Below, piece after piece: positions 1,352-54,130 of a DNA stretch of 64,000 bases (within the stretch, counting starts at the first letter, position 1; each line of letters starts with the position of its first letter). The notes below the pieces were generated by a model. The model was not told where the DNA came from. It did no database searches and was given only the letters and a program-made list of their open reading frames with translations. The DNA is from Minisyncoccota bacterium (GTDB lineage: Bacteria; Patescibacteriota; Minisyncoccia; UBA6257; 2-01-FULL-56-20): the NCBI GenBank assembly GCA_036266715.1, contig DATAXS010000004.1:889-64888 (forward strand), in the 5' to 3' direction. The position numbers and the translations under genes are program-made.

Positions 1352-3520
1352 ATGGACCGCGTGCCGGAACTCCGCCATTTTTACTTTGAGCGCCGGGTAG
1401 GCTTTAAGCGACGGGTCGCTCTTCACCACCGTGACGGCGGCTTCGCGGCTCGCCTTTACGAGTTCGGGGTCCTGGAGCGCGGACATGGCGATGTCGGGGA
1501 GCCCGGTCTGCACTTCGCCGAAGAATTGCCCCGGTCCACGGAGGGCGAGGTCTTTTTCCGCGAGTTCAAATCCGTTGGTTGCTTCCATAAGCGCCTTGAG
1601 CCGCGCGTTCGCGGCCTTGGCATCCGAGTCCGCCATCAAGAAGCAATAGGACTGGTTCTCGCCGCGGCCCACGCGGCCGCGGAACTGGTAGAGCTGCGCC
1701 AACCCGAAGCGTTCCGCGCCCTCTATCATCATGACGGTGGCGTTCGGCACGTCCACGCCCACTTCCACGACGGAGGTGGTCACTAAAATATCGAACTCGC
1801 GGTCCTTAAAGCGGCGCATGGTGTCTTCCTTTTCTTTTGGCTTCATCTGGCCGTGGAGCATGGCGAGGCGGAGGTCGGGGAAAATTTTGGTCCGCAGCTT
1901 TTCGTATTCTTCTTTTACGGAGCGGAGCTCGAGCTTCTGCGCGGTTTCTTCCGCGGATGGCTCAATGCGCGGGCAGATCACAAAAACTTGCCGCCCGGCA
2001 CGCACTTCTTTTTTTACGAAGTCGTACGTGAGCTGCCGTTCTATCGGCATTACGATCTTGGTGTTCACGGGTTTGCGTCCGCCGGGAAGTTCCGTGATGA
2101 GCGAAAGGTCCAGGTCGCCGAACACGGTGAGCATGAGCGTGCGGGGGATGGGCGTGGCGGACATGCTGAGGAAGTGGGGGACAAAGCTTTTGTGGTTCGT
2201 GCCGCCATTTGCGCCATTTTTTTTGCTGCCCAGCGCCGCGCGCTGGCGGACGCCGAACCGGTGCTGTTCGTCAATGATGACGAGGCCGAGGTTTTTGAAC
2301 GAGACCGCTTTTTCAATAAGTGCGTGCGTGCCGAACACGATGGCTACCTCGCCGTTTTCCACTTTCTTTGCCATCGCGGCGCGCGACACGTCCGCCGCCA
2401 TATCGTTTTCGTAGAAGACGACGGCGCTCGTGCCGGTGAGGAGCCCGATGGCGGGTTGCGCGCCGGTGCCCGCAGCGCCTGCGCCGCGCGACATGCGCGC
2501 AAGCAGCCCTTTCATGGTTTCAAAATGCTGGCGCGCTAGGATCTCCGTGGGCGCCATGAAGGCCGTTTGGACGCCGTTCGCGGCCGCGGAAATTGCGGCG
2601 ATCGCGGCGACCACCGTTTTGCCGGAACCCACGTCGCCCTGGAGCAGGCGGTTCATGGGCGAGGGCTTTTCAATATCTTTAATAATCTCCCAGAGCGATT
2701 TTTTTTGCGAAGGAGTGAGTTCAAAGGGGAGCTCCGCGAGAATTGCCTTCACGTGTTCAATGTCCGTTTTTACGACCGGCGCTTTTTCCTGCGCAAGCTT
2801 TAATTTTTGTTGCAGGTTTACGAGCTGAAGAAGGAAAAGGTCCTCAAACGAAAATCGCCGCGTGGCAGCAGACGCTTCTTCCAGTGTTTGGGGAAAGTGG
2901 ACCGCCTGGAGCGCGTGGTTCGCGTCCGGAAAGCCGAGTGCCGCGAGCGTTTCCTGCGGAATCCATTCTTTAAAGGTCGGCACGCGCTTCAGGACGGATT
3001 GCATGATGAAGCGGATGCCGCGCGAGGTGAGCCCGCGGGTTTCCGGGTAGATGGGCACAAGCCGCGCGGTGTGCTTGGTTTCGTCAAATTGTTCGGGCGT
3101 GCCCCTGAGCGCTTCGTACGCCGGGTGGCTCAGGTACATTTCGCTTTCGTCGGAGAGGGATACCTTTCCGGAAAAGTTCGCGAGGCGCCCCACCTTTAAA
3201 ATGTTCGCCACGTAGGGTTGGTTGAACCAAATGGCGCGGATGGTGCCGCTGTCGTCCGCGATGGTTGCTTCCACGATGGACATTTGCCTGCGGAAGCTGC
3301 GCCCGAGGTGTACTTCTTCCACCACGCCTTGGATGGTGGCCTGCTGGCCCGGTTCCAGTTCGGCAACGGAATATACTTTTGAAAAATCTTCGTAGCGCGC
3401 GGGGAAATGGAAGAGCAGATCGCGCACCGTGTGGATGCCCAAATTTTCAAGACGGCGCAGAAACGCGGAGCGCGCGCCCAAGACCTCGTACAGCGGTGTG
3501 TCTAACGCCACTTGGGCCAT
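1343..3520 (-). CDS. recG: ATP-dependent DNA helicase RecG
   Basis: N-terminal wedge/OB region, DEQH helicase motifs (GSGKT, DEQHRFG) and C-terminal helicase domain. I prefer the start at MAQVALD (3520) over the track start at 3619. Confidence 0.9.
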   Translation of the reverse strand: MAQVALDTPLYEVLGARSAFLRRLENLGIHTVRDLLFHFPARYEDFSKVYSVAELEPGQQATIQGVVEEVHLGRSFRRQMSIVEATIADDSGTIRAIWFNQPYVANILKVGRLANFSGKVSLSDESEMYLSHPAYEALRGTPEQFDETKHTARLVPIYPETRGLTSRGIRFIMQSVLKRVPTFKEWIPQETLAALGFPDANHALQAVHFPQTLEEASAATRRFSFEDLFLLQLVNLQQKLKLAQEKAPVVKTDIEHVKAILAELPFELTPSQKKSLWEIIKDIEKPSPMNRLLQGDVGSGKTVVAAIAAISAAANGVQTAFMAPTEILARQHFETMKGLLARMSRGAGAAGTGAQPAIGLLTGTSAVVFYENDMAADVSRAAMAKKVENGEVAIVFGTHALIEKAVSFKNLGLVIIDEQHRFGVRQRAALGSKKNGANGGTNHKSFVPHFLSMSATPIPRTLMLTVFGDLDLSLITELPGGRKPVNTKIVMPIERQLTYDFVKKEVRAGRQVFVICPRIEPSAEETAQKLELRSVKEEYEKLRTKIFPDLRLAMLHGQMKPKEKEDTMRRFKDREFDILVTTSVVEVGVDVPNATVMMIEGAERFGLAQLYQFRGRVGRGENQSYCFLMADSDAKAANARLKALMEATNGFELAEKDLALRGPGQFFGEVQTGLPDIAMSALQDPELVKASREAAVTVVKSDPSLKAYPALKVKMAEFRHAVHLE

Positions 3521-3576
3521 TGATGTGCCCGTAGTATACCATAGCGGCATATGCGCGTACAAAAAATAGAGAACCG

Positions 3577-3650
3577 CGCAAGAAGGCAGAGCACTATTGG
3601 GGGCAGAGTACGGAGCCACACTGCCCCCAATAGTGCTCTGCCTTCTTGCG
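3577..3650. repeat. Perfect palindrome H1: 30-bp stem (cgcaagaaggcagagcactattgggggcag) with 14-nt loop AGTACGGAGCCACA. It lies immediately after the stop of the 3658-4401 gene and is followed on the minus strand by a T-tract
   Basis: Arms at 3577-3606 and 3621-3650 are exact reverse complements. The loop contains GGAGCC. Confidence 0.9.
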
Positions 3651-3657
3651 TAGGCTG

Positions 3658-4401
3658 CTATTCTTCTTTTGTGCTGCGTACTTTTGCCGCGAGGAATGTG
3701 GCTATTTTATCGTCGCGATCGATATAGATAAGGATGCGGCGCAAGAATTCCCTGAGGCCCTTTTGAAGCGTTTCTTGCGGGGCGTTTTTTAAGGACGCCG
3801 GCCATTCAAAATGAGAAACCAATTTTTCGTAGTGCGGTGAGCGTTCTTTTAATAATTCCTCCGCCGAAACAGAGTCGGCAAGTTCAATCTCCAATCCATG
3901 CTTTTTAAGGATGTTCTCAAAAAGCTGGCGCGCCCTCGGAAGATGATATTCGTTGGTTTCCAAAAGAATTTTTTTGATATCTTCCTGGTCCAGCAGGGCA
4001 AGCACATTCTCAATGCCTTCGGAAGTATTTACGGATGTCCCTTCCGTGAGGATGGCATTTTCAGGAATACCATGGGTGAGCAGGTAGTGTTTCATTACCT
4101 CTGCGATGCTCGTATCCGTAGGGAGATCTTTTTGATGGCCGCTCCCGCTTATGATTATCTTTTTTACTTTGCCCTTTTCAAAAAGTTCCAACGCGCCGAT
4201 GGCCCTCATTTTTGATTCAAGCGACGGGACTGCGTTTCCCTCCTTCACCTCAAACCATTCCCCGAAAACCACGACCGCGTCCGCGTCGGGAATGGTTTCG
4301 AGTGCCTCCTCCGTTTCCCGACCGTTTTCCATTTGTTCGGGATCGTGTGGTATTGGCCCTTGTTCAAACTTTCTCGGAGGCATAGCGATATTATATACCA
4401 A
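3658..4401 (-). CDS. DUF218 / YdcF-ElyC-SanA family protein
   Basis: The GSGHQ-containing central region resembles the DUF218 fold. Start is MVYNIAMPPRK at 4401. Confidence 0.55.
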   Translation of the reverse strand: MVYNIAMPPRKFEQGPIPHDPEQMENGRETEEALETIPDADAVVVFGEWFEVKEGNAVPSLESKMRAIGALELFEKGKVKKIIISGSGHQKDLPTDTSIAEVMKHYLLTHGIPENAILTEGTSVNTSEGIENVLALLDQEDIKKILLETNEYHLPRARQLFENILKKHGLEIELADSVSAEELLKERSPHYEKLVSHFEWPASLKNAPQETLQKGLREFLRRILIYIDRDDKIATFLAAKVRSTKEE

Positions 4402-5203: not shown

Positions 5204-5289
5204 GGAGGGGTCGGATAGTGGTTCATTCCACCGCACTTGAAATGCGGCGCCCCGAAAGGGGCTCGTGAGTTCGAATCTCACCCCCTCCG
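5204..5289 (+). tRNA. tRNA-Ser (anticodon TGA), type II with a long variable arm
   Basis: Acceptor GGAGGGG/CCCCTCC, anticodon loop CTTGAAA, 17-nt variable arm CGCCCCGAAAGGGGCTC, T-arm GTGAG-TTCGAAT-CTCAC. Confidence 0.75.
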
Positions 5290-8169: not shown

Positions 8170-8198
8170 TTGACAAATTCGTCCGCCTGAAATATACT
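8170..8198 (+). promoter_or_regulatory. Sigma70-like promoter TTGACA-N17-TATACT for the rplJL operon
   Basis: Exact spacing and near-consensus hexamers. Confidence 0.6.
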
Positions 8199-8204
8199 GT
8201 CTGT

Positions 8205-8364
8205 ACTTCCAAAGACCGCAGGCATCCGAGAGAAAACGGAATAAGCACCTGCCGAGGAAAGCACCAATGCCATTAGGGGCGGCGGTGCACCCGCGAATGG
8301 CTTTGGAAAGCCGTTTTTTATTTATCTCGCGGACTCGGGCTTTGCCCCTGCCGCACAAAAACCA
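8205..8364 (+). promoter_or_regulatory. rplJ leader region (autoregulatory L10 leader-like) with attenuator hairpin ggctttggaaagcc plus T6 at 8299-8319
   Basis: About 160-nt untranslated leader between the promoter and rplJ, with a stem-loop and T-run. Its position matches the known L10(L12)4 autoregulatory leader. Confidence 0.5.
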
Positions 8365-16076: not shown

Positions 16077-16829
16077 ATGTCCAAACTCCTCGCCGCCAAC
16101 TGGAAAGAGAATCCAAAGACAGAAAAAGATGCGTTAAAGCTTTTCCGCGAAGTTGGAAGGGCTGCGGACGATAAGGTGCAGGTGGTACTCTGCCCACCTT
16201 TTATTTATTTGGATGAACTTGCACACGCGTTCAAGAAGATAGCGTGCAAAAAACATCTCGCGCTCGGCGCACAGGATGCTTTTTGGCAGGAGAAGGGACC
16301 GTTTACGAGCGAGGTCGGTCCGCGGATGTTGAAAGCGCTCGGGGCGCGGTACGTGATCATTGGACACTCCGAGCGGAGAAAGTGGGCCAAGGAAACGGAC
16401 GCGATCATTAATAAGAAAATAAAACTTGCCCGCGCGGACGGCCTGAAGGTGATCCTCTGCGTGGGGGAGCCGCTCGCGGTCCGCAAAAAGGGCATTCCTG
16501 CCGCGCAGAAGTTTGTGGCTGCTCAACTTTCCAAGGATTTTGCGGGGCTAAAACCACGCGACCGCGCACACATCATCGTAGCCTACGAGCCCATTTGGGC
16601 CATCGGCACCGGCCGCTATGATGAGCCGGAGGATGCGCGGGGAATGGCGGAATTCATCAAGCGGAAGCTCGGCAAACCGGCACCGATCGTGCTCTACGGC
16701 GGATCCGTCACGAGCAAGAACGTCGCCGATTATGTACAATATAGTAGTATTGATGGCGCCCTTGTCGGAGGCGCGAGTCTAAAAGCCGCTGAATTTAAAA
16801 AAATAATAAACATATGCCAAACAATATAA
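16077..16829 (+). CDS. tpiA: Triosephosphate isomerase
   Basis: NWK motif, IIGHSERR, AYEPIWAIGTG and GGS(V)T. Confidence 0.95.
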   Translation: MSKLLAANWKENPKTEKDALKLFREVGRAADDKVQVVLCPPFIYLDELAHAFKKIACKKHLALGAQDAFWQEKGPFTSEVGPRMLKALGARYVIIGHSERRKWAKETDAIINKKIKLARADGLKVILCVGEPLAVRKKGIPAAQKFVAAQLSKDFAGLKPRDRAHIIVAYEPIWAIGTGRYDEPEDARGMAEFIKRKLGKPAPIVLYGGSVTSKNVADYVQYSSIDGALVGGASLKAAEFKKIINICQTI

Positions 16830-17575
16830 AAGAGTGGTTTTGGGGGACGTTCACGGTGCTGCTCGTGGTGATCGTCGTGATACTGATTTTCTTTGTGACG
16901 CCGATGTTGGGACAATTCGCGCATTCGTTCACTTCGTCGCGGACGATCACGGTGACGGGACAGGGAATGACGGTCGCGACGCCGGATGAAGCGGACATTT
17001 CTTTCTCCGTGGTTTCCCAAGGAACAAGTCCGGATGCGCTTACCTCGGACAACAATAATAAGATGAGCGCGGTGATGCAGTTTGTGAGCTCGCAGGGGAT
17101 CGCCTCGAGCGACATCCAGACCACGAACTACGACCTTGAGCCGAACTATTCGTACGATAAGACGACGCAGCGCAACTACATTACGGGCTACACGCTCACG
17201 CAGACCGTGCAGGTGAAGGTGCGTGACCTTGCAAACGTTGCCGCAGTGCTCGGCGGCCTTACGCCGCTCGGCGTGAACCAGGTGGGTGGCGTGAACTTCA
17301 CGTTCCAAAATCCGGATGAATTTGTGGCGATTGCACGCGGCGATGCCATGACGAAGGCGACGCAAGAAGCATCGGAGCTTGCCGCCGAAGCGGGCGCTTC
17401 GCTCGGTCCTGCCGTCACCATCCAAGAATCCTACGGCCTGCCCGGCCCGCAACCTTACCCCGCTTACGCAATGGCTTCGGGGGGTGGCACGGCAGCCGTT
17501 CCCTCAACGGTCTCCGTGGCACCGGGTACCCAAACAGTGACCGACAACGTTACGGTTACGTATGAACTCCAATAA
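16814..17575 (+). CDS. SIMPL/DUF541 (YggE-like) periplasmic protein with an N-terminal TM anchor
   Basis: The block ITVTGQG...YTLTQTVQVKVRDL...GVNQVGGVNF is typical of DUF541. Confidence 0.7.
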   Translation: MPNNIKEWFWGTFTVLLVVIVVILIFFVTPMLGQFAHSFTSSRTITVTGQGMTVATPDEADISFSVVSQGTSPDALTSDNNNKMSAVMQFVSSQGIASSDIQTTNYDLEPNYSYDKTTQRNYITGYTLTQTVQVKVRDLANVAAVLGGLTPLGVNQVGGVNFTFQNPDEFVAIARGDAMTKATQEASELAAEAGASLGPAVTIQESYGLPGPQPYPAYAMASGGGTAAVPSTVSVAPGTQTVTDNVTVTYELQ

Positions 17576-18257
17576 GGAGTCCGCAAAGGACTTCGGCATA
17601 GTCACCATCATCGGCGCGCTCGTGGGGCTGCTCATCCAGCCCGTGCTTGCGAACACGTCGCTTGAAAGCCGGCTTACGTGGGGGATACGCATCGCAATAT
17701 TCCTCGCGCTCGCCGTGCTTGCACCGCTCGCGCTTCTTGTCGCGCGGTGGCTGGATAAGTTTTGGAAGGGAGTTTACCAATTCGCCCAGTTTGCGGCAGT
17801 GGGGACGCTGAACAGCTTTATTGATGTGGGCGTTCTTAATTTGGAAACATTCCTCTATGGATCATCTCCCTTGAGCAACGGATTATTCGCGGCCTTTAAA
17901 GCGGTATCATTTCTTTGTTCCACCACCAACAGCTTTTTTTGGAACAAGCACTGGACCTTTGCTGAGGCAAAAAAGACCAAGACGGCAAAGACGTTGGAAT
18001 TCTACGGTATTGCGCTTATTGGCTGGGGGTTGAATGTGGGCGCGGCGACGCTCGTGAAGGCATTTGGTCCCACGGGGTCAGAATCGCTCACCAAACTGTG
18101 GATAAACATAGTCTCTCCGGTCGCGGGGATCGCGGTTTCCTTCGCATGGAACTTCATTGGCTATAAGTATTTTGTGTTCAAAGTGCCCGCGCCGGCTGCG
18201 GCGACTGCGCCGGGGCCGGGGGAGACCTCCGGGGGAAACGCATTAAAAGATCGTTAA
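17562..18257 (+). CDS. GtrA-family membrane protein
   Basis: Four TM helices and the GtrA signature FxxVGxxNxxID...NFxxNKxWTF. Confidence 0.7.
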   Translation: MNSNKESAKDFGIVTIIGALVGLLIQPVLANTSLESRLTWGIRIAIFLALAVLAPLALLVARWLDKFWKGVYQFAQFAAVGTLNSFIDVGVLNLETFLYGSSPLSNGLFAAFKAVSFLCSTTNSFFWNKHWTFAEAKKTKTAKTLEFYGIALIGWGLNVGAATLVKAFGPTGSESLTKLWINIVSPVAGIAVSFAWNFIGYKYFVFKVPAPAAATAPGPGETSGGNALKDR

Positions 18258-18260
18258 AAT

Positions 18261-18289
18261 TTGCAATTTTGAGGGATATCTGCTATAAT
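18261..18289 (+). promoter_or_regulatory. Strong sigma70-like promoter TTGCAA-N17-TATAAT in the 420-nt gap
   Basis: Consensus -10 hexamer with 17-bp spacing. Confidence 0.55.
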
Positions 18290-18295
18290 GCTTAA

Positions 18296-18385
18296 GAATG
18301 AGTGTGCGCATACGTAGCCGATGATATCGAGCGACGCATGTCCAGACTTTCTTTTTGGCCAAAAGACCCCTTCGCGGGGTTTTTG
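18296..18385 (+). ncRNA. Candidate small RNA of about 90 nt, running from the promoter to the terminator ccccttcgcgggg plus T5
   Basis: The promoter at 18261-18289 and the intrinsic terminator at 18367-18384 bracket a non-coding stretch. Confidence 0.35.
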
Positions 18386-18538
18386 GTTTATAAAGGGCTC
18401 CCGCGCGCTCGCGCACCGGTTCTTTAAGCGTTTTTTCATCTAAATTTAATTGTGTTTTAATGACCATACTTTATACTGAGTATGGAGTCGGCTAGAGAGC
18501 ACTCATTCAATAACAAAAAGAATTGGAGGTCACCATAG

Positions 18539-18623
18539 CCGCTCCGCTCAGTCCTTTTACTCTCCCGCACCTGCACCACGCGCGGTTTCGTAGAAAAGAG
18601 GAGGCCTGAGCGGAGCGGTTTTT
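18539..18623 (+). ncRNA. Structured element whose 13-bp terminal stem (ccgctccgctcag/ctgagcggagcgg) encloses a 54-nt interior and is followed by T5; candidate sRNA 3' domain or terminator
   Basis: Perfect 13-bp stem directly followed by TTTTT, 60 nt upstream of murB. Confidence 0.35.
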
Positions 18624-18680
18624 GTGTGCCCATGAGCTCCTGCGGTGTTTCCAAGATTACAACGATAAAATCTATTTACC

Positions 18681-19652
18681 ATGCCACGATTTCAAGAAAA
18701 TGTGCCACTGTGCACATGGAGCAACTACAAGATAGGCGGCCCTGCCCGCTTTTTCTTTGCGCCCAAAAACGAGCGTGAAGTGCATTGGGCGATCACCGAG
18801 GCGAAGAAAAAAAAGCTTCCCGTATTCATCCTTGGCGGCGGTACGAATCTTTTGATAGGTGATGAGGGGTTTGACGGGCTCGTGATCCGCCCGACGGCGG
18901 CCGCGCTCCACGCACGCGGTACCAAGGTCGCGGCCGGTACGGGCGTTACCATGGAAAAACTTTTGGATTTTTCCGCGGGCAAATCGTTGTCCGGGTTGGA
19001 GTGGGCCGGCGGATTGCCGGGAACGCTCGGCGGCGCCATCCGCGGGAATGCGGGATGCTTCGGCGGCGAGATCAAAGACGTGGTGGCGTCGGTAAAAAGC
19101 TTTGATCCCAAAAAAATGAGAATGGTCACGCGCTCCACGCGCGCGTGCGCATTCGGCTACCGCACGAGCATCTTTAAGAAAGGCGCGAAAGGCGAGATCA
19201 TTTTGGAGGCAACGCTCGCGTTGCGTCCGGGGAAGAAAAGCGAAATTCAAAAAGCGACGCGCGAAAAGATGGAATATCGCAAAAAGAACCACCCGCTGGA
19301 CTATCCGAACATCGGGAGCATCTTTAAGAACGTGCCGCTCGCCACGCTCCACAAGGCCTCGGGCCCAGAGTACAAGAAGGCGCTCCGCGAGGCGACCCTC
19401 GTCTTTCGCGGCTCGCATTTTTCCGTGAAGACGGATCCGTTCCCGGTCATTTCCACGGCAAAGCTTATCGCCGAGTCGGGCCTCCGCGGAGTGAGCTTCG
19501 GCGGCGCGATGTTCTCAGCAAAGCACCCGAACTTCATCGTAAACGTGCTGAATGCCAATGCGGGAGACGTGAAAGGCCTCATTTTGCTCGCAAAATCCGC
19601 CGTAAAAGACAAATTTGATGTAGAATTGGAAGAAGAGGTACAAATCACATGA
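18681..19652 (+). CDS. murB: UDP-N-acetylenolpyruvoylglucosamine reductase MurB
   Basis: FAD-binding PCMH domain and conserved MurB C-terminal domain. Confidence 0.9.
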   Translation: MPRFQENVPLCTWSNYKIGGPARFFFAPKNEREVHWAITEAKKKKLPVFILGGGTNLLIGDEGFDGLVIRPTAAALHARGTKVAAGTGVTMEKLLDFSAGKSLSGLEWAGGLPGTLGGAIRGNAGCFGGEIKDVVASVKSFDPKKMRMVTRSTRACAFGYRTSIFKKGAKGEIILEATLALRPGKKSEIQKATREKMEYRKKNHPLDYPNIGSIFKNVPLATLHKASGPEYKKALREATLVFRGSHFSVKTDPFPVISTAKLIAESGLRGVSFGGAMFSAKHPNFIVNVLNANAGDVKGLILLAKSAVKDKFDVELEEEVQIT

Positions 19653-19996
19653 AAATCAATATAAAAAAATCCGACAATCTCATTACGCCCGCGTTGGAAG
19701 AATATATAGAAGAGAAGCTCATGCCACTCGCAAAGTTCGTCAAACATTTTGACGAAACGGGCGAGGCGGAAATGTGGATGGAAGTTTCCCGCACGACCGA
19801 CCATCACCAAAAGGGAGACGTATTTAAAGTGGCAGTTGACCTGCGCCTGCCGCACAAAATACTCCGCGCGGAAGAAAATGCCGACGACGTCCATAAAGCA
19901 ATCGACGCGGCAAGAAACACGCTCCAACTGGAGATAGAAAAGTACAAGGCAAAGTTCGAGGATGTGCGGCACCAGAGGCGCGAGGGGAAGGAGTAA
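19649..19996 (+). CDS. hpf: Ribosome hibernation-promoting factor (HPF/RaiA, short form)
   Basis: MKINIKKSDNLITPALEEYIEEKL is typical of S30AE/HPF. The gene overlaps the murB stop (ATGA). Confidence 0.85.
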   Translation: MKINIKKSDNLITPALEEYIEEKLMPLAKFVKHFDETGEAEMWMEVSRTTDHHQKGDVFKVAVDLRLPHKILRAEENADDVHKAIDAARNTLQLEIEKYKAKFEDVRHQRREGKE

Positions 19997-20017
19997 GCGC
20001 CTAAGACCCAAGAAACG

Positions 20018-21313
20018 ATGGCGAACACGAAAGCGGAAGTCGTAATAATCGGCGCCGGCGCGTCGGGGCTCATGGCCGCGCGGGAGCTTGGCCGCGCCGG
20101 GAAAAAAGTGATCGTGCTTGAGGCGCGCGACCGCATAGGTGGCCGCATCTTTCCGCTCCCGGAAAGAGAGTTCGGGTATCCCGCGCAGGGCGGCGCGGAG
20201 TTTGTGCATGGACCGGCGAAGGTGACGCGGGCACTGATGGATGAGGCGGGACTCACTTATGTAGCAAGCAAGGGAGAACGTTGGACGGTACGTGACGGGA
20301 AAATCATAAAAAACGAAGATTTTTCCCCGAAAGAGCCCGATGCCTTTCAAGAAAAATTGAGGGCGCTCATGGAGGATGTGCCTATTAGTGATTTCCTTGA
20401 AAAGTATTTTGGAGAAGAAAAGTACGAAGCGTTTAGGAAATCCATCGTGCGAATGGTCCAGGGATACGATGCCGCGGATCCAAGGCGGGCGAGCACATTT
20501 TCCCTTCGCGATGAATGGTTGAGCGGCGATAAGGAATGGCAACAGGGGAGAATCAAAGAGGGATACACCGCACTTCTCGGTTTTTTGTTAGATGAATGCA
20601 AAGCTTTAGGGGTTGAGATGCGACTCGCGCGGGAGGCTGAATCTATTGTCGTGAGCCAAGAGGGGCAAGGAGCAACCATTCGATGCACAAATGCAGAAAA
20701 GTACCACGCGCAAAAAGTTATAATCACCCTTCCATTGCCGGTAATTTCCTCCTTGCATTTCGAGTCCACCCTTTCGGAAAAGATCGAGGCGGCTTCAAAA
20801 ATCGGGTTCGGCGGAGTTATAAAATTACTTCTGCGTTTTAACCTCAAGTGGTGGACAGATATAACGGGGAGTGATTTTAGCAAGATGAGTTTTCTTTTTG
20901 GCGACGAGATTTTTCCAACCTGGTGGGCGCAATATCCGGAATCCTCAGTAGTGCTCACGGGTTGGCTTGCCGGTCCACCTTCGGAAAAACTGAAGGATAA
21001 TTCTTCGGAAGAGATTCTCCAAATGGGGCTTACCTCGCTTGCCCATACTTTTAAGATGAACGTGCGAGATTTTAAAAAAGAACTTATTGCGTGGCAAGCG
21101 GTGAACTGGTTTGCAGATCCGTTTGCACGAGGCGCTTACAGCTATGTCACGGTAGATAGCTACAAGGCGCGCGAGGAATTGATGAAACCAGTGGCGGACA
21201 CGATCTTTTTTGCAGGGGAAGCGCTCTATAGCGAAGAGGAAGAAACGGCCACCGTGGAAGGCGCGCTCGGGAGCGGGAAAGAAGTTGCGGAGAAGATATT
21301 GCGTGGCGCGTAA
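20018..21313 (+). CDS. FAD-dependent amine oxidase family oxidoreductase
   Basis: GAGxSGL dinucleotide motif, the VLEARDRIGGR signature and a C-terminal FAD-binding segment. Confidence 0.8.
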   Translation: MANTKAEVVIIGAGASGLMAARELGRAGKKVIVLEARDRIGGRIFPLPEREFGYPAQGGAEFVHGPAKVTRALMDEAGLTYVASKGERWTVRDGKIIKNEDFSPKEPDAFQEKLRALMEDVPISDFLEKYFGEEKYEAFRKSIVRMVQGYDAADPRRASTFSLRDEWLSGDKEWQQGRIKEGYTALLGFLLDECKALGVEMRLAREAESIVVSQEGQGATIRCTNAEKYHAQKVIITLPLPVISSLHFESTLSEKIEAASKIGFGGVIKLLLRFNLKWWTDITGSDFSKMSFLFGDEIFPTWWAQYPESSVVLTGWLAGPPSEKLKDNSSEEILQMGLTSLAHTFKMNVRDFKKELIAWQAVNWFADPFARGAYSYVTVDSYKAREELMKPVADTIFFAGEALYSEEEETATVEGALGSGKEVAEKILRGA

Positions 21314-47310: not shown

Positions 47311-47363
47311 GCTTACGGCGAACGGAGGAGAGCAATCTCCTCCGTTTTTGTTATACTTAATTT

Positions 47364-47785: not shown

Positions 47786-48364
47786 ATGGATACGACTATA
47801 AAAACCGATGCAGAATTGGTGCGTGCGGTCCTCCGGGGCGACAAGAACGCATTCCCGGTGCTTTTGGAGCGCCACATGGACTCGGTGTACAAGTTCGCGT
47901 TCCGGTATGTGCGGAATGGAGAGGATGCCGATGACGTAACGCAGGAAGCATTCATCCGCGTGTGGAAAAATCTCAAGAAATTTGATACCTCCAAGAACTT
48001 CAAGACCTGGCTTTTTACGATAGCCAAGAACGTGGCGCTTGATATCCTCAAAAAGAAAAAGCCGCTCAACTTTTCGCAGATCGCGGAGGAAGACGAGCAG
48101 CTGGATGCGGTCTTTGCGTCACATTTGGAAAGTCCGGAATTGCCGGATTCGCTTTACGAACGCAAGCTCGTAAAAGCAGGCCTCGGCGCCGCGCTCACCA
48201 CGCTCCCGCAGAATTACCAAACAGTGCTCACTATGCGCTACGAAGGAAATCTCAAATTCCGTGAGATCGCGGAAACGCTCCATGAGCCGATTGATACCGT
48301 GAAGAGCAAACATCGCCGCGGGCTTATGATGCTGAGGAAGGTCGTGGGGAAAGACAAGGCCTAG
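47786..48364 (+). CDS. ECF-type RNA polymerase sigma factor
   Basis: Region 2 (DVTQEAFIRVWKN) and region 4 helix-turn-helix (YREIAETL). Upstream is a near-leaderless promoter TTTGAG-N17-TATAAT with a TGn extension. Confidence 0.8.
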   Translation: MDTTIKTDAELVRAVLRGDKNAFPVLLERHMDSVYKFAFRYVRNGEDADDVTQEAFIRVWKNLKKFDTSKNFKTWLFTIAKNVALDILKKKKPLNFSQIAEEDEQLDAVFASHLESPELPDSLYERKLVKAGLGAALTTLPQNYQTVLTMRYEGNLKFREIAETLHEPIDTVKSKHRRGLMMLRKVVGKDKA

Positions 48365-48435
48365 CAAAAAGAGAGGGGTTTTCCAGACAGAGGGCTCCCT
48401 TTACTGTCTGGAAAACCCCTCTCTTTTTGCTAGGC
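48359..48435. repeat. Perfect palindrome H4: 32-bp stem (ggcctagcaaaaagagaggggttttccagacag) with 13-nt loop AGGGCTCCCTTTA, overlapping the stop codon of the sigma factor gene
   Basis: Arms at 48359-48390 and 48404-48435 are exact reverse complements. Confidence 0.9.
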
Positions 48436-48521
48436 ATACATTTTCCCCACGATCCTTTTGGAGTGTTAGGAGCGGGAGGCGGGAAGGCACCCAAATAGGG
48501 CCAATTTTCGTATTAAGAGCG

Positions 48522-52242: not shown

Positions 52243-53487
52243 ATGAAAACCGAAGATCTTTTTGAAGAAACATACAGTGCGGTGACCGTGAACAAAGTGC
52301 GGTCGGGTTTAACGATGCTTGGCATCGTGATAGGCATTGCGTCCGTGATCGCGCTCCAGGCAGTGGGGCAGGGCGCGCAAAGCTCCATTCAATCCAGCAT
52401 CCAGTCGCTCGGTGCGAATTTGATTATGGTCACGCCGGGCGCACAGAAGACGATCGGTACCACGGTGAGCACCGGGTTGGGGAGCGCGGAGACCCTCACG
52501 GCAGACGACGCAACCGCCATCTCCCAGCTTCCCGACGTCACCGCCGTGGCGCCCGAGGTAAGCGGCCGCTACCAGGTGGTCTATAAAGGACAGAACACCA
52601 ACGTGAGCGTGATGGGGACGACCTCCGCATATCCCACGGTGCGAAACGTGCAGGTCGCCGATGGAAGCTTTGTGACCGATACCGACAACACCGAATCGAA
52701 TCTCGTGGCCGTGATCGGTCCCACCGTGCTCCAAACGCTTTTTGCGCCGAGCGCGAACGCAAGCGCAACGCCCGACATGGCGATAGGGCAGAATATCCTT
52801 ATTAAAGGAAATGTGTTTACGGTGGTTGGCGTCACGGTCTCAAAAGGCGGTAGCGGTTTTAACAATCAGGACGACATGATCTACGTGCCACTCACGACCG
52901 CCCAGCACTACTTGATCGGCAGTACTGCGTATGTGACGGAGGTGGACGTGGAGGCATCGAGCCAGAACGACATGACGACGGTCCAGAACGACATCACGTC
53001 GCTCTTGCTCCAACGGCACAATATTTCCGATCCCACGCAGGCGGACTTTACGGTATTGAACCAGCAGGATATTGTCTCCGCCGCCTCAAGCGTCACGGGT
53101 ACCTTCACCACGCTGCTTGCCGCAATTGCAGGCATCTCGCTCGTCGTGGGCGGCATCGGCATTATGAACATGATGCTTACGACGGTCACCGAGCGTACGC
53201 GTGAAATCGGTTTGCGCAAAGCCATCGGTGCAAAAAAGAACGACATCACGATGCAGTTTCTTGCCGAGGCCGTCACGCTCACGTTTGGCGGTGGGATAAT
53301 TGGGATCGTGCTCGGGTGGCTCGCGGCATTGCTCATATCCACGCTCACGGGAACGGCAACGAGCGTGTCGCTCAGTTCCATTATTCTTGCGTTCTGCGTG
53401 TCCGCGGGCATCGGGATCGTGTTCGGCTATTATCCCGCCCGCCGCGCTGCGAGCCTTTCACCAATAGAAGCATTGAGATATGAATAA
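52243..53487 (+). CDS. ABC transporter permease (MacB-like; MacB_PCD plus FtsX domains)
   Basis: N-terminal TM helix, periplasmic domain and C-terminal three-TM FtsX module. Confidence 0.85.
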   Translation: MKTEDLFEETYSAVTVNKVRSGLTMLGIVIGIASVIALQAVGQGAQSSIQSSIQSLGANLIMVTPGAQKTIGTTVSTGLGSAETLTADDATAISQLPDVTAVAPEVSGRYQVVYKGQNTNVSVMGTTSAYPTVRNVQVADGSFVTDTDNTESNLVAVIGPTVLQTLFAPSANASATPDMAIGQNILIKGNVFTVVGVTVSKGGSGFNNQDDMIYVPLTTAQHYLIGSTAYVTEVDVEASSQNDMTTVQNDITSLLLQRHNISDPTQADFTVLNQQDIVSAASSVTGTFTTLLAAIAGISLVVGGIGIMNMMLTTVTERTREIGLRKAIGAKKNDITMQFLAEAVTLTFGGGIIGIVLGWLAALLISTLTGTATSVSLSSIILAFCVSAGIGIVFGYYPARRAASLSPIEALRYE

Positions 53488-53519
53488 TTCTTTTAAAATT
53501 TATTTTGAAGTGACGACTA

Positions 53520-53595
53520 TGGATGGAACGCTCCGGTGCTTTTCCGGCAGTGTGGCTCTGAACTCTGCCGGAAAAGCACCGGAGCGTTCCATCCA
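53520..53595. repeat. Perfect palindrome H5: 31-bp stem (tggatggaacgctccggtgcttttccggcag) with 14-nt loop TGTGGCTCTGAACT. The reverse complement of the loop matches the H1 loop at 12/14 positions
   Basis: Arms at 53520-53550 and 53565-53595 are exact reverse complements. Confidence 0.9.
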
Positions 53596-53629
53596 AAAAC
53601 GGTCGAACTAAAATAAAATATTAACAATT

Positions 53630-54130
53630 ATGAAAAAATACAAAGTGCACATCATCTGGGTCATCGTGGCGGTCGTCGCGCTCGCGGGAGGTTTCTTCTG
53701 GGGCAAGTCGATGGCGCCGGCCGCTACCGGGTTCCCGGGCGGGGGATCGTTTGCGGGAGCATCGGGAACAAGGACGTTCGCGCGTGGCGGTGCCGCCGCG
53801 GGTGCGGGAGGCGGGCTCGTGACGGGCCAGGTCCTCTCCATGAGCGGGGACAGCATGACGGTCCAGCTTACAAACGGCAACTCGCAGGTGGTATTCTATT
53901 CAAGTTCCACGTCGGTCATAAAGCCGGAGCCCGCGCCTGTAAGCGCGCTTACGCCGGGCACATCGGTCATGATCGTGGGTACCACGAATTCTGACGGCAG
54001 CTTGACCGCACAGTCCATCCAGGTCCGCACAGCGAGCAGCACGGGTGGTTTTGGCGGCGGTGCGGGAGGCGGGGGCGGAACGGGCTCGGGCTCGGGCACG
54101 GGTGCAAGTGCCAATACCAGCGGGCAATAA
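53630..54130 (+). CDS. Hypothetical secreted Gly-rich protein with an N-terminal TM/signal anchor
   Basis: Open frame with a terminator downstream. Confidence 0.5.
   Translation: MKKYKVHIIWVIVAVVALAGGFFWGKSMAPAATGFPGGGSFAGASGTRTFARGGAAAGAGGGLVTGQVLSMSGDSMTVQLTNGNSQVVFYSSSTSVIKPEPAPVSALTPGTSVMIVGTTNSDGSLTAQSIQVRTASSTGGFGGGAGGGGGTGSGSGTGASANTSGQ

Follow-up and report, generated by a model that had tools for sequence, protein, structure and literature searches.

The window analysed here, a stretch of 64,000 nucleotides, belongs, to judge by the proteins encoded around the hairpins described below, to the metagenome-assembled genome of an uncultured Candidatus Paceibacterota bacterium (Patescibacteria/CPR), whose 65-kb NCBI contig also occurs in JGI metagenome 3300036820 and in Logan SRR11836411. 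Within this window, an HlyD-ABC-MacB operon ends with the gene of a MacB-type ABC permease (ORF 52243-53487, stop codon at 53485-53487; Pfam MacB_PCD 6e-48 and FtsX 4e-21), and the following gene, on the same plus strand, encodes a DUF5666 protein (53630-54130). Direct reading of the sequence between them reveals a near-perfect hairpin of 76 nt, H5, at 53520-53595. Its left arm (53520-53550, 31 nt, TGGATGGAACGCTCCGGTGCTTTTCCGGCAG) is perfectly complementary to the 31 nt of its right arm (53565-53595), and the 14-nt loop at 53551-53564 reads TGTGGCTCTGAACT on the plus strand and AGTTCAGAGCCACA on the minus strand; with two further pairs inside the loop, the arms extend to 34 nt at 97% complementarity. 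The 31-bp perfect palindrome following a MacB-like permease that the initial annotation had described is thus found again, arm for arm, with Pfam MacB_PCD confirming the permease. Folded as RNA, H5 reaches -75.1 kcal/mol, compared with -28.7 +/- 3.2 kcal/mol after dinucleotide shuffling (z = -14.5); the structure formed by the opposite strand is almost as stable.

H5 is one of four very long hairpins that an inverted-repeat scan and a separate hairpin scan detected in the window, where eight hairpins have a stem of at least 11 bp against none or one in random shuffles of the window. H1 (3577-3650) has a 30-bp perfect stem and the loop AGTACGGAGCCACA at 3607-3620; it is located 8 nt after the stop codon of a minus-strand DUF218 gene and upstream of recG. 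H2 (9413-9481), with arms of 28 nt forming 26 pairs around the loop TAAGGGAAGGCCT, separates rplL (stop codon at 9394-9396) from the gene of tRNA-Val (9489). Finally, H4 (48359-48435), whose 32-bp perfect stem carries the loop AGGGCTCCCTTTA, stands between an ECF sigma gene and the gene of a small membrane protein, a putative anti-sigma factor, with the sigma stop codon (48362-48364) inside its left arm. All four are found 0-33 nt after a stop codon and have co-directional genes on both sides; they fold with extreme energies (z between -10 and -15) that are nearly the same on both strands.

A hairpin in such a position calls to mind an intrinsic terminator, which is likewise a stable hairpin placed just after a stop codon; the hairpins described here differ from it in having no U-tract, a stem three times the usual length and a loop of 13-14 nt instead of 3-8 nt. 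The spacers of bacterial post-gene inverted repeats are likewise short, mostly 4-5 nt (PMC13155455). No run of T follows the H5 stem on either the plus strand (AAAAACGG) or the minus strand (TAGTCGTC), and H5 is absent from the output of a terminator scan that detects canonical sites elsewhere in the window (47320-47347, 5734-5703 and 8295-8316). The earlier remark that the missing T-tract speaks against a simple terminator holds, and terminators of the canonical design, in which a T-run follows a short-looped stem, do occur in the same genome. Because of the missing U-tract and the 13-14-nt loops, it is unlikely that H5 acts as a canonical intrinsic terminator. At the gathering threshold, Rfam 15 recognises nothing but tRNAs in the window, and what permissive scans add is limited to pre-miRNA models of eukaryotes; these score far below threshold and reflect the generic shape of a long hairpin.

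What relates the four hairpins to one another lies at their centre. All four stems are closed by CAG...CTG around loops of 13-14 nt, and once oriented alike these read CAG-AGTACGGAGCCACA-CTG for H1 (plus strand), CAG-AGTTCAGAGCCACA-CTG for H5 (minus strand), CAG-TAAAGGGAGCCCT-CTG for H4 (minus strand) and CAG-TAAGGGAAGGCCT-CTG for H2 (plus strand). A GGAGCC-like core stands 5 nt from the CAG in every one of them, the looser consensus being CAG-N5-GGAGCC-N2-3-CTG, and an apical stem of the form G.TTTTSC.G(A)CAG is common to H5, H4 and H2. BLAST among the elements returns two cross-matches only, H1 with H5 and H2 with H4 (20/23), and these two loop types differ substantially from each other. Between H1 and H5 the identity amounts to 22/24 over GGCAG, loop and CTGCC, so that the match runs 5 bp into the stems. 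It had been noticed before that the reverse complement of the H5 loop agrees with the H1 loop at 12/14 positions, which is what we find (AGTTCAGAGCCACA versus AGTACGGAGCCACA); identity of at least 12/14 between two loops has a probability of 3.7e-6 per comparison and of 4.4e-5 after the 12 comparisons made (all pairs and orientations). As a free pattern in the window, the H1/H5 14-mer is not enriched (three occurrences at up to three mismatches, 3.0 expected). The basal 15-18 bp of each stem are unrelated between copies, and neither the window nor the other loci compared contain any further match to the stem arms. With a core and a clamp in common, an apical stem shared by three of them, and unrelated bases, the four hairpins are homologous through their centres and not through their ends. 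The initial statement that conservation resides in the loop rather than in the stem is accordingly correct for the loop (12/14) and has to be widened, since the CAG/CTG clamp and the apical stem are conserved as well. We also considered that the conserved apex might be a word comparable to an uptake sequence and rejected this candidate, no related k-mer being over-represented in the window.

The relative orientation of H1 and H5 deserves a comment. H5 had been described as opposite to H1, and this is true in window coordinates alone, because H1 lies between minus-strand genes (DUF218 and recG) and H5 between plus-strand genes; relative to transcription the two loops read the same way, both as UGUGGCUC[C/U]G[U/A]ACU. 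The stems being perfect palindromes, orientation is defined by the loop alone, and as template switching can invert loops there is no need to regard H5 as having been inserted in the opposite orientation to H1. With respect to the proposal that loop orientation might follow the direction of the upstream gene, H1 and H5 agree with each other and H4 agrees on the GGCUC core, which brings GGCUC into the loop of the transcribed strand in 3/4 hairpins; H2 is the exception, and a ratio of 3:1 is not significant.

Could such regular structures be artefacts of assembly or amplification, for instance fold-back chimeras? Assemblies often break at palindromes, and indeed the Logan contig L002 (SRR11836411) ends at window position 53549, inside the left arm of H5; moreover, the assemblies compared may stem from the same reads. 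This explanation is nevertheless hardly credible: a JGI contig (L001), from an independent assembly, carries H5 identically, H1 and H4 are likewise identical in the two assemblies, the flanks continue into conserved genes, and a specific loop and clamp shared by four separate loci go beyond what any artefact produces. Long palindromes of this kind break short-read assemblies, and in CPR MAGs they may be under-represented. Over the 34.8 kb in which the NCBI-derived window and the JGI assembly overlap, we counted five differences. Three are clustered within 10 nt (12223-12232) inside a PBP transpeptidase gene, and the other two, at 9455 and 9466, fall in the right arm of H2, where both break pairs. 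H2 has therefore two mismatches in the window, one of which is a G.U pair on the transcribed strand, and four in the JGI assembly; it looks to be decaying, the alternative being sequencing error at the hairpin.

The comparison with relatives suggests that the hairpins are recent arrivals. The spacer between the MacB and DUF5666 genes measures 142 nt here, against 40 nt in one relative (L021, MacB 91% identical) and 37 nt in a second one (L022, 82%), and in their alignment the sequence described here is longer by about 104 nucleotides, which follow the macB stop codon and precede a conserved AAGGTCG...ATG block. In the same way, the spacer between the sigma gene and the next gene is 157 nt long here and 44 nt in L021, and that between DUF218 and recG 137 nt here and 59 nt in L025 (RecG 82% identical). 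In these relatives, at 82-91% protein identity, the spacers are short and hairpin-free, so that each of the three sites has an empty counterpart as expected of a MITE-type insertion: H5 in L021 and L022, H4 in L021 and H1 in L025. Judged by these alignments, H5, H4 and H1 are insertions that postdate the split from relatives at 82-91% protein identity; mobility is deduced here from presence and absence between species rather than from polymorphism within a population. Absent at 3/3 of the relatives' sites tested, the hairpins are not needed for the operons concerned. H4 and H5 interrupt gene pairs that lie 37-44 nt apart in the relatives, in which these pairs are probably co-transcribed.

The insertions comprise more than the inner palindromes. 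At H1, H4 and H5, each flank repeats the other in inverted form, and this inverted similarity is in register with the inner palindrome; each extended intergenic region folds as a whole, from end to end, into one long hairpin. At H4, the left outer helix (48338-48352, plus strand, AAGG-TCGTGGGGAAA) is ancestral coding sequence of the sigma factor (..VVGK..), and the right one (48442-48457) is its derived mirror (15/16, p = 0.0005). At H1, the ancestral outer arm (3658-3690, minus strand) consists of the last 10 codons and the stop codon of DUF218, and a derived copy of this 3' end is found on the recG side at 3544-3569, which the empty site of L025 lacks (p = 0.004-0.011 for the mirror). We take the coding-side arms as ancestral in both cases because the C-termini of the proteins are homologous in relatives: the sigma factor ends with LMMLRKVVGKDKA, aligned with LMMLRKVVEKGGEA in L021, and DUF218 with FLAAKVRSTKEE, aligned with FLATKLRSSQKEEKE in L025. 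At H5, it is the stretch of 32-36 nt from the macB stop codon to the stem that mirrors the DUF5666 leader (p = 0.002 against random 45-mers of the window and 0.04 against composition-matched shuffles, a borderline value that makes this the weaker case), and the centroid fold pairs the left flank, 53484-53519, with the right flank, 53596-53631. This right flank is the ancestral one, the DUF5666 leader, for the complete 37-40-nt spacer of both L021 and L022 aligns with it; its imperfect mirror on the left is AT-rich and absent from both relatives. Outer and inner arms therefore have different histories. Local DNA was the source of the outer arms, which mirror it imperfectly (70-94%) and which at H5, H4 and H1 comprise an ancestral arm and a reverse-complement copy lacking in outgroups, the signature of a template switch; neither of the inner 28-32-bp arms is present in outgroups, and they are not locally derived.

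One of these mirror copies lies close to the start of recG. This gene is preceded by TGGTATACT, an extended -10-like sequence on the minus strand (window 3520-3545) that is conserved in L025, and a -35-like TTGTAC recognised by eye upstream of that sequence lies inside the mirror copy adjoining H1; the promoter scan did not flag this -10/-35-like site. The insertion may have remodelled the recG promoter, as the position of these motifs suggests.

In replicating inverted repeats, template switching is documented to create a perfect stem in one event, to extend stems by adding the neighbouring sequence as its reverse complement and to invert loops (PMC8794818), and further precedents for hairpins made by template switching come from PMC8604942 and PMC13100816. 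Perfect stems, stem extension and loop inversion are all seen here. One may then ask whether the four hairpins were simply born in place, independently of one another, by template switching of local sequence, in which case they would be new terminator-like hairpins and no dispersed family would exist. The mechanism is a documented one (PMC8794818), the outer arms clearly mirror local flanks, and a Patescibacteria MAG (L023, GCA_028865305.1) offers at 12664-12709 a perfect palindrome of 21 bp around a GGTC tetraloop, the left arm of which includes the end of the upstream LigT-like gene (its last codons and stop codon), so that here, too, a hairpin mirrors the end of a gene. Still, four separate births appear improbable to us. 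The inner arms (28-32 bp) do not come from the ancestral local sequence of the relatives, and such births would not yield a common loop (12/14), the CAG/CTG clamp in 4/4 or a common apical stem; template switching is a mutational mechanism and not a family of elements, and it leaves the same loop and apex at four unlinked loci unexplained.

The reading that we prefer, with a probability of about 0.5, combines both aspects: the hairpins would form a lineage-private family of REP/MITE-like repeats, conserved at the centre and shaped by hairpin-primed template switching. According to this scenario, a family of hairpin repeats of roughly 70-80 nt would have spread into short spacers just downstream of stop codons. 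The perfect pairing, mirror flanks and flipped loop would result from intrastrand (hairpin-primed, snap-back) template switching during replication, a process that we infer from the sequence patterns and that would homogenise the arms, extend the palindrome by copying the flank as its reverse complement and invert the loop. After copying a perfect palindrome, the nascent strand would snap back and continue on itself, which would leave a mirror flank. The hairpins thus look like a small selfish or self-growing repeat and not like an ordinary terminator, and they are probably neutral or only mildly consequential. Against a family stands that four copies are visible in about 72 kb and that their similarity is limited to loop and apex; the perfect 30-bp pairing could reflect selection for function instead.

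How far this family extends was explored with several searches. As MAFFT misaligned the arms when the four elements were aligned at full length, a covariance model was built from the apical 18 bp and the loop only. With filters off, the sole elements that it finds in the window are the four hairpins, at 58-66 bits, the next match being a generic 11-bp hairpin at 18 bits; it also recovers the copies of the elements in a contig of the same organism (L024) and detects none in about 152 kb from the loci of nine relatives. Together with 7.5 kb of L024 beyond the left end of the window (13521-21001), which contain no hairpin element, the part of this genome covered amounts to about 72 kb, less than 10% of the genome, and within these 72 kb there is no further loop of the H1/H5 type. 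The exact H1/H5 loop pattern, CAGAGTNCNGAGCCACACTG, has 7 matches in 185,579 species-representative genomes, and JGI metagenome contigs contain 11 and the viral contigs of IMG/VR 4; these counts are close to the chance frequency and no match lies in a hairpin. We rejected these matches as further copies, for their "stems" of 3-5 bp mark them as chance occurrences. The type-B loop pattern has no match in viral contigs, nor do 20-mers taken from the stems of H5, H1 and H4, in their variable part, have an exact one, and the basal 15-18 bp of the inner stems match neither empty sites nor window nor viral contigs; the one match in a phage database concerns the AT-rich flank of H5 only. Stems made of captured foreign, spacer-like DNA were accordingly rejected, there being no viral match to the 20-mers and no other match to the arms. 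To the extent covered by public data, the hairpin family is private to this lineage, a conclusion drawn from these sequence searches, and no description of such elements in CPR genomes was found in the searchable literature.

No enzyme that might mobilise the hairpins is encoded nearby. Pfam annotation of essentially all window genes, and of the contigs L001 and L024, yields only housekeeping genes in the window, and neither the window nor L024 (about 72 kb) encodes a transposase, a RAYT/HUH enzyme, a reverse transcriptase, a recombinase or an integrase; a locally encoded mobilising enzyme was rejected for want of any candidate. On L024, a Terminase_2 gene (phage small terminase, 20149-20568) adjoins a PG_binding_1 gene, and this region may be a prophage remnant. 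It is tempting to go one step further and to see in the hairpins an undescribed palindromic mobile element of CPR bacteria, conserved at its centre, whose snap-back synthesis would run into the target and leave an inverted duplication of the flank instead of a direct target-site duplication. We consider this more specific version rather unlikely.

The closest analogues of the preferred family are the short interspersed palindromes of other bacteria. Like REP and BIME sequences, which RAYT transposases mobilise, the hairpins are short palindromes, dispersed in intergenic DNA just after genes, forming hairpins in the mRNA and specific to a lineage. REPs, according to one account (PMC3733652), are credited with stabilisation of mRNA or termination, and their hallmark is a GTAG or CGTC tetranucleotide at one end of an imperfect palindrome of 20-40 nt. 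Here the stems are perfect and 28-32 bp long, there is no such tag at the 5' ends of the four elements (TGGATGG, CGCAAGAA, GCGATGCC and GCCTAGCA) and no RAYT in the window or L024; REPs are similar over their whole length within a genome and usually accompanied by a RAYT, whereas here apex and loop alone are shared. MITE-like repeats (Correia/NEMIS, ERIC/IRU, Rickettsia palindromic elements) are similarly non-autonomous hairpin insertions found in the spacers of compact genomes, sometimes reaching the ends of genes and present or absent between close lineages, and the hairpin-forming repeats of reduced organelle genomes (PMC2800124) bear the same likeness. They have conserved terminal inverted repeats and usually a direct target-site duplication; in the family described here it is the termini that vary and the centre that is conserved, and the duplicated flank is inverted. 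No terminal inverted repeat is conserved between the copies, whose outer stems and termini are unrelated, and no direct target-site duplication flanks H5, H4 or H1. The attC sites of integrons are, again, imperfect to perfect palindromes placed after ORFs, in which structure is conserved over sequence; they conserve the base of the stem (R''/R', GTTRRRY), have extrahelical bases and vary at the centre, the reverse of what is seen here, where the stems are perfect, the boundaries contain no GTTRRRY and the annotated genes include no integrase.

A conserved loop on a variable stem is also the architecture of rolling-circle origins and of other substrates of HUH endonucleases, which raises the question of whether the hairpins could be recognised as DNA, for example as nicking or recombination sites, the loop being read on its variable stem, in extruded or single-stranded DNA, by a HUH endonuclease (RAYT, Rep or TnpA of the IS200/IS605 type) or by an integron-like recombinase. 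The symmetry of the elements, either DNA strand of which folds equally, would suit such a site, and a HUH-type Phage_CRI replication gene exists in related Paceibacteria. On the other hand, the 72 kb contain no gene for a HUH enzyme, integrase or transposase, the hairpins lack the GTAG/CGTC tag, the GTTRRRY core and extrahelical bases, and two substantially different loop types would have to be read, so that recognition at the DNA level seems improbable. The Phage_CRI gene (L031, 13770-15175; replication initiator of filamentous phages) adjoins an HTH_17 gene, which suggests an integrated ssDNA element in the clade.

The alternative that deserves most attention is a functional RNA under selection: an RNase III site, a stabiliser of the 3' end, or a terminator or attenuator independent of a T-tract, which would uncouple the neighbouring genes in each of the pairs macB/DUF5666, sigma/putative anti-sigma, rplL/tRNA-Val and DUF218/recG. 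A perfect RNA helix of 30 bp is a textbook substrate of RNase III and a barrier to 3' exonucleases, and effects on mRNA processing are for this reason plausible. If transcribed, the elements would add a helix of roughly 30 bp between cistrons, where it may be cleaved by RNase III or hold up 3' exonucleases. In favour of selection on RNA, all four hairpins occupy the same position, 0-33 nt after a stop codon and between co-directional genes, three of the four stems are perfect, z of the four lies between -10 and -15, GGCUC recurs in the transcribed-strand loop of 3/4, one mismatch of H2 is the G.U pair on the transcribed strand, and many long post-gene hairpins exist in other Paceibacteria, one pair of them with a compensatory change. 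Yet the nearest relatives lack the hairpins at 3/3 tested sites, a U-tract is missing, loops of 13-14 nt are atypical beside spacers of mostly 4-5 nt (PMC13155455), both strands fold almost equally, and H2 is gaining disruptive changes. On balance we regard selection for a function in RNA as possible but doubtful. It would be compatible with the family of template-switched repeats that we favour, since an inserted element could have been exapted.

The long hairpins of other Paceibacteria help to put these considerations into perspective. They are common, and most of them have tetraloops and outer stems made of an A-tract and a T-tract, the design of a bidirectional terminator. In the spacer between def and fmt, a 25-bp hairpin with an 11-nt loop is present in L031 (9928-9992) and L035 (about 9925-9990) and lacking in L037 and L022; between L031 and L035 its pairing is kept by a T-A to C-G compensatory change, which implies that hairpins of this kind are not always neutral in the clade and that some insertions are maintained. 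The window itself contains, between tRNA-Glu and tRNA-Ser, a 13-bp perfect hairpin (TGAAAACAGCCAC-AGATC-GTGGCTGTTTTCA, 14838-14868) of the same A-tract/T-tract design as the bidirectional terminators of relatives. The Patescibacteria MAG L023 carries a different, AT-rich repeated palindromic element with units such as CTAATTAATAATATCTAATTAATAACGAATG, which fills the 263-nt spacer after its MacB gene (11250-11500) and has another copy after the HlyD gene (8966-9034). At this site L023 thus possesses a separate family of intergenic insertions.

CPR/Patescibacteria have very small, densely packed genomes, of whose non-coding DNA, and of the birth of structured elements in it, little is known. In the lineage studied here, palindromes of about 100 nt arise inside spacers of 40 nt over a short evolutionary distance, and they overlap a stop codon and the leader of the gene that follows; their mirror flanks, flipped loops and perfect arms speak for hairpin-primed template switching as a source of structured RNA and DNA in bacteria. 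Should the family turn out to be abundant throughout the genome, it would provide a natural setting in which to study how palindromes are born and spread, and at the same time a practical warning for the assembly and annotation of CPR genomes; if it is limited to four neutral insertions, it would be a minor curiosity.

Three further observations on the window concern other genes. The segment 8191-8329, which directly precedes rplJ (8365-8985) and follows a strong promoter-like site (8170-8198), matches the ribosomal protein L10 leader of Rfam below threshold (32 bits, gathering threshold 44) and is plausibly a diverged L10 leader. Two genes encode tRNA-Ser(TGA), at 5204 and 15957. Respiratory oxidase genes are uncommon in CPR bacteria, and at about 62541-64000 (from 20299 onward in L001) the window contains a gene for subunit I of a haem-copper oxidase (PF00115, COX1), with DsbB nearby.
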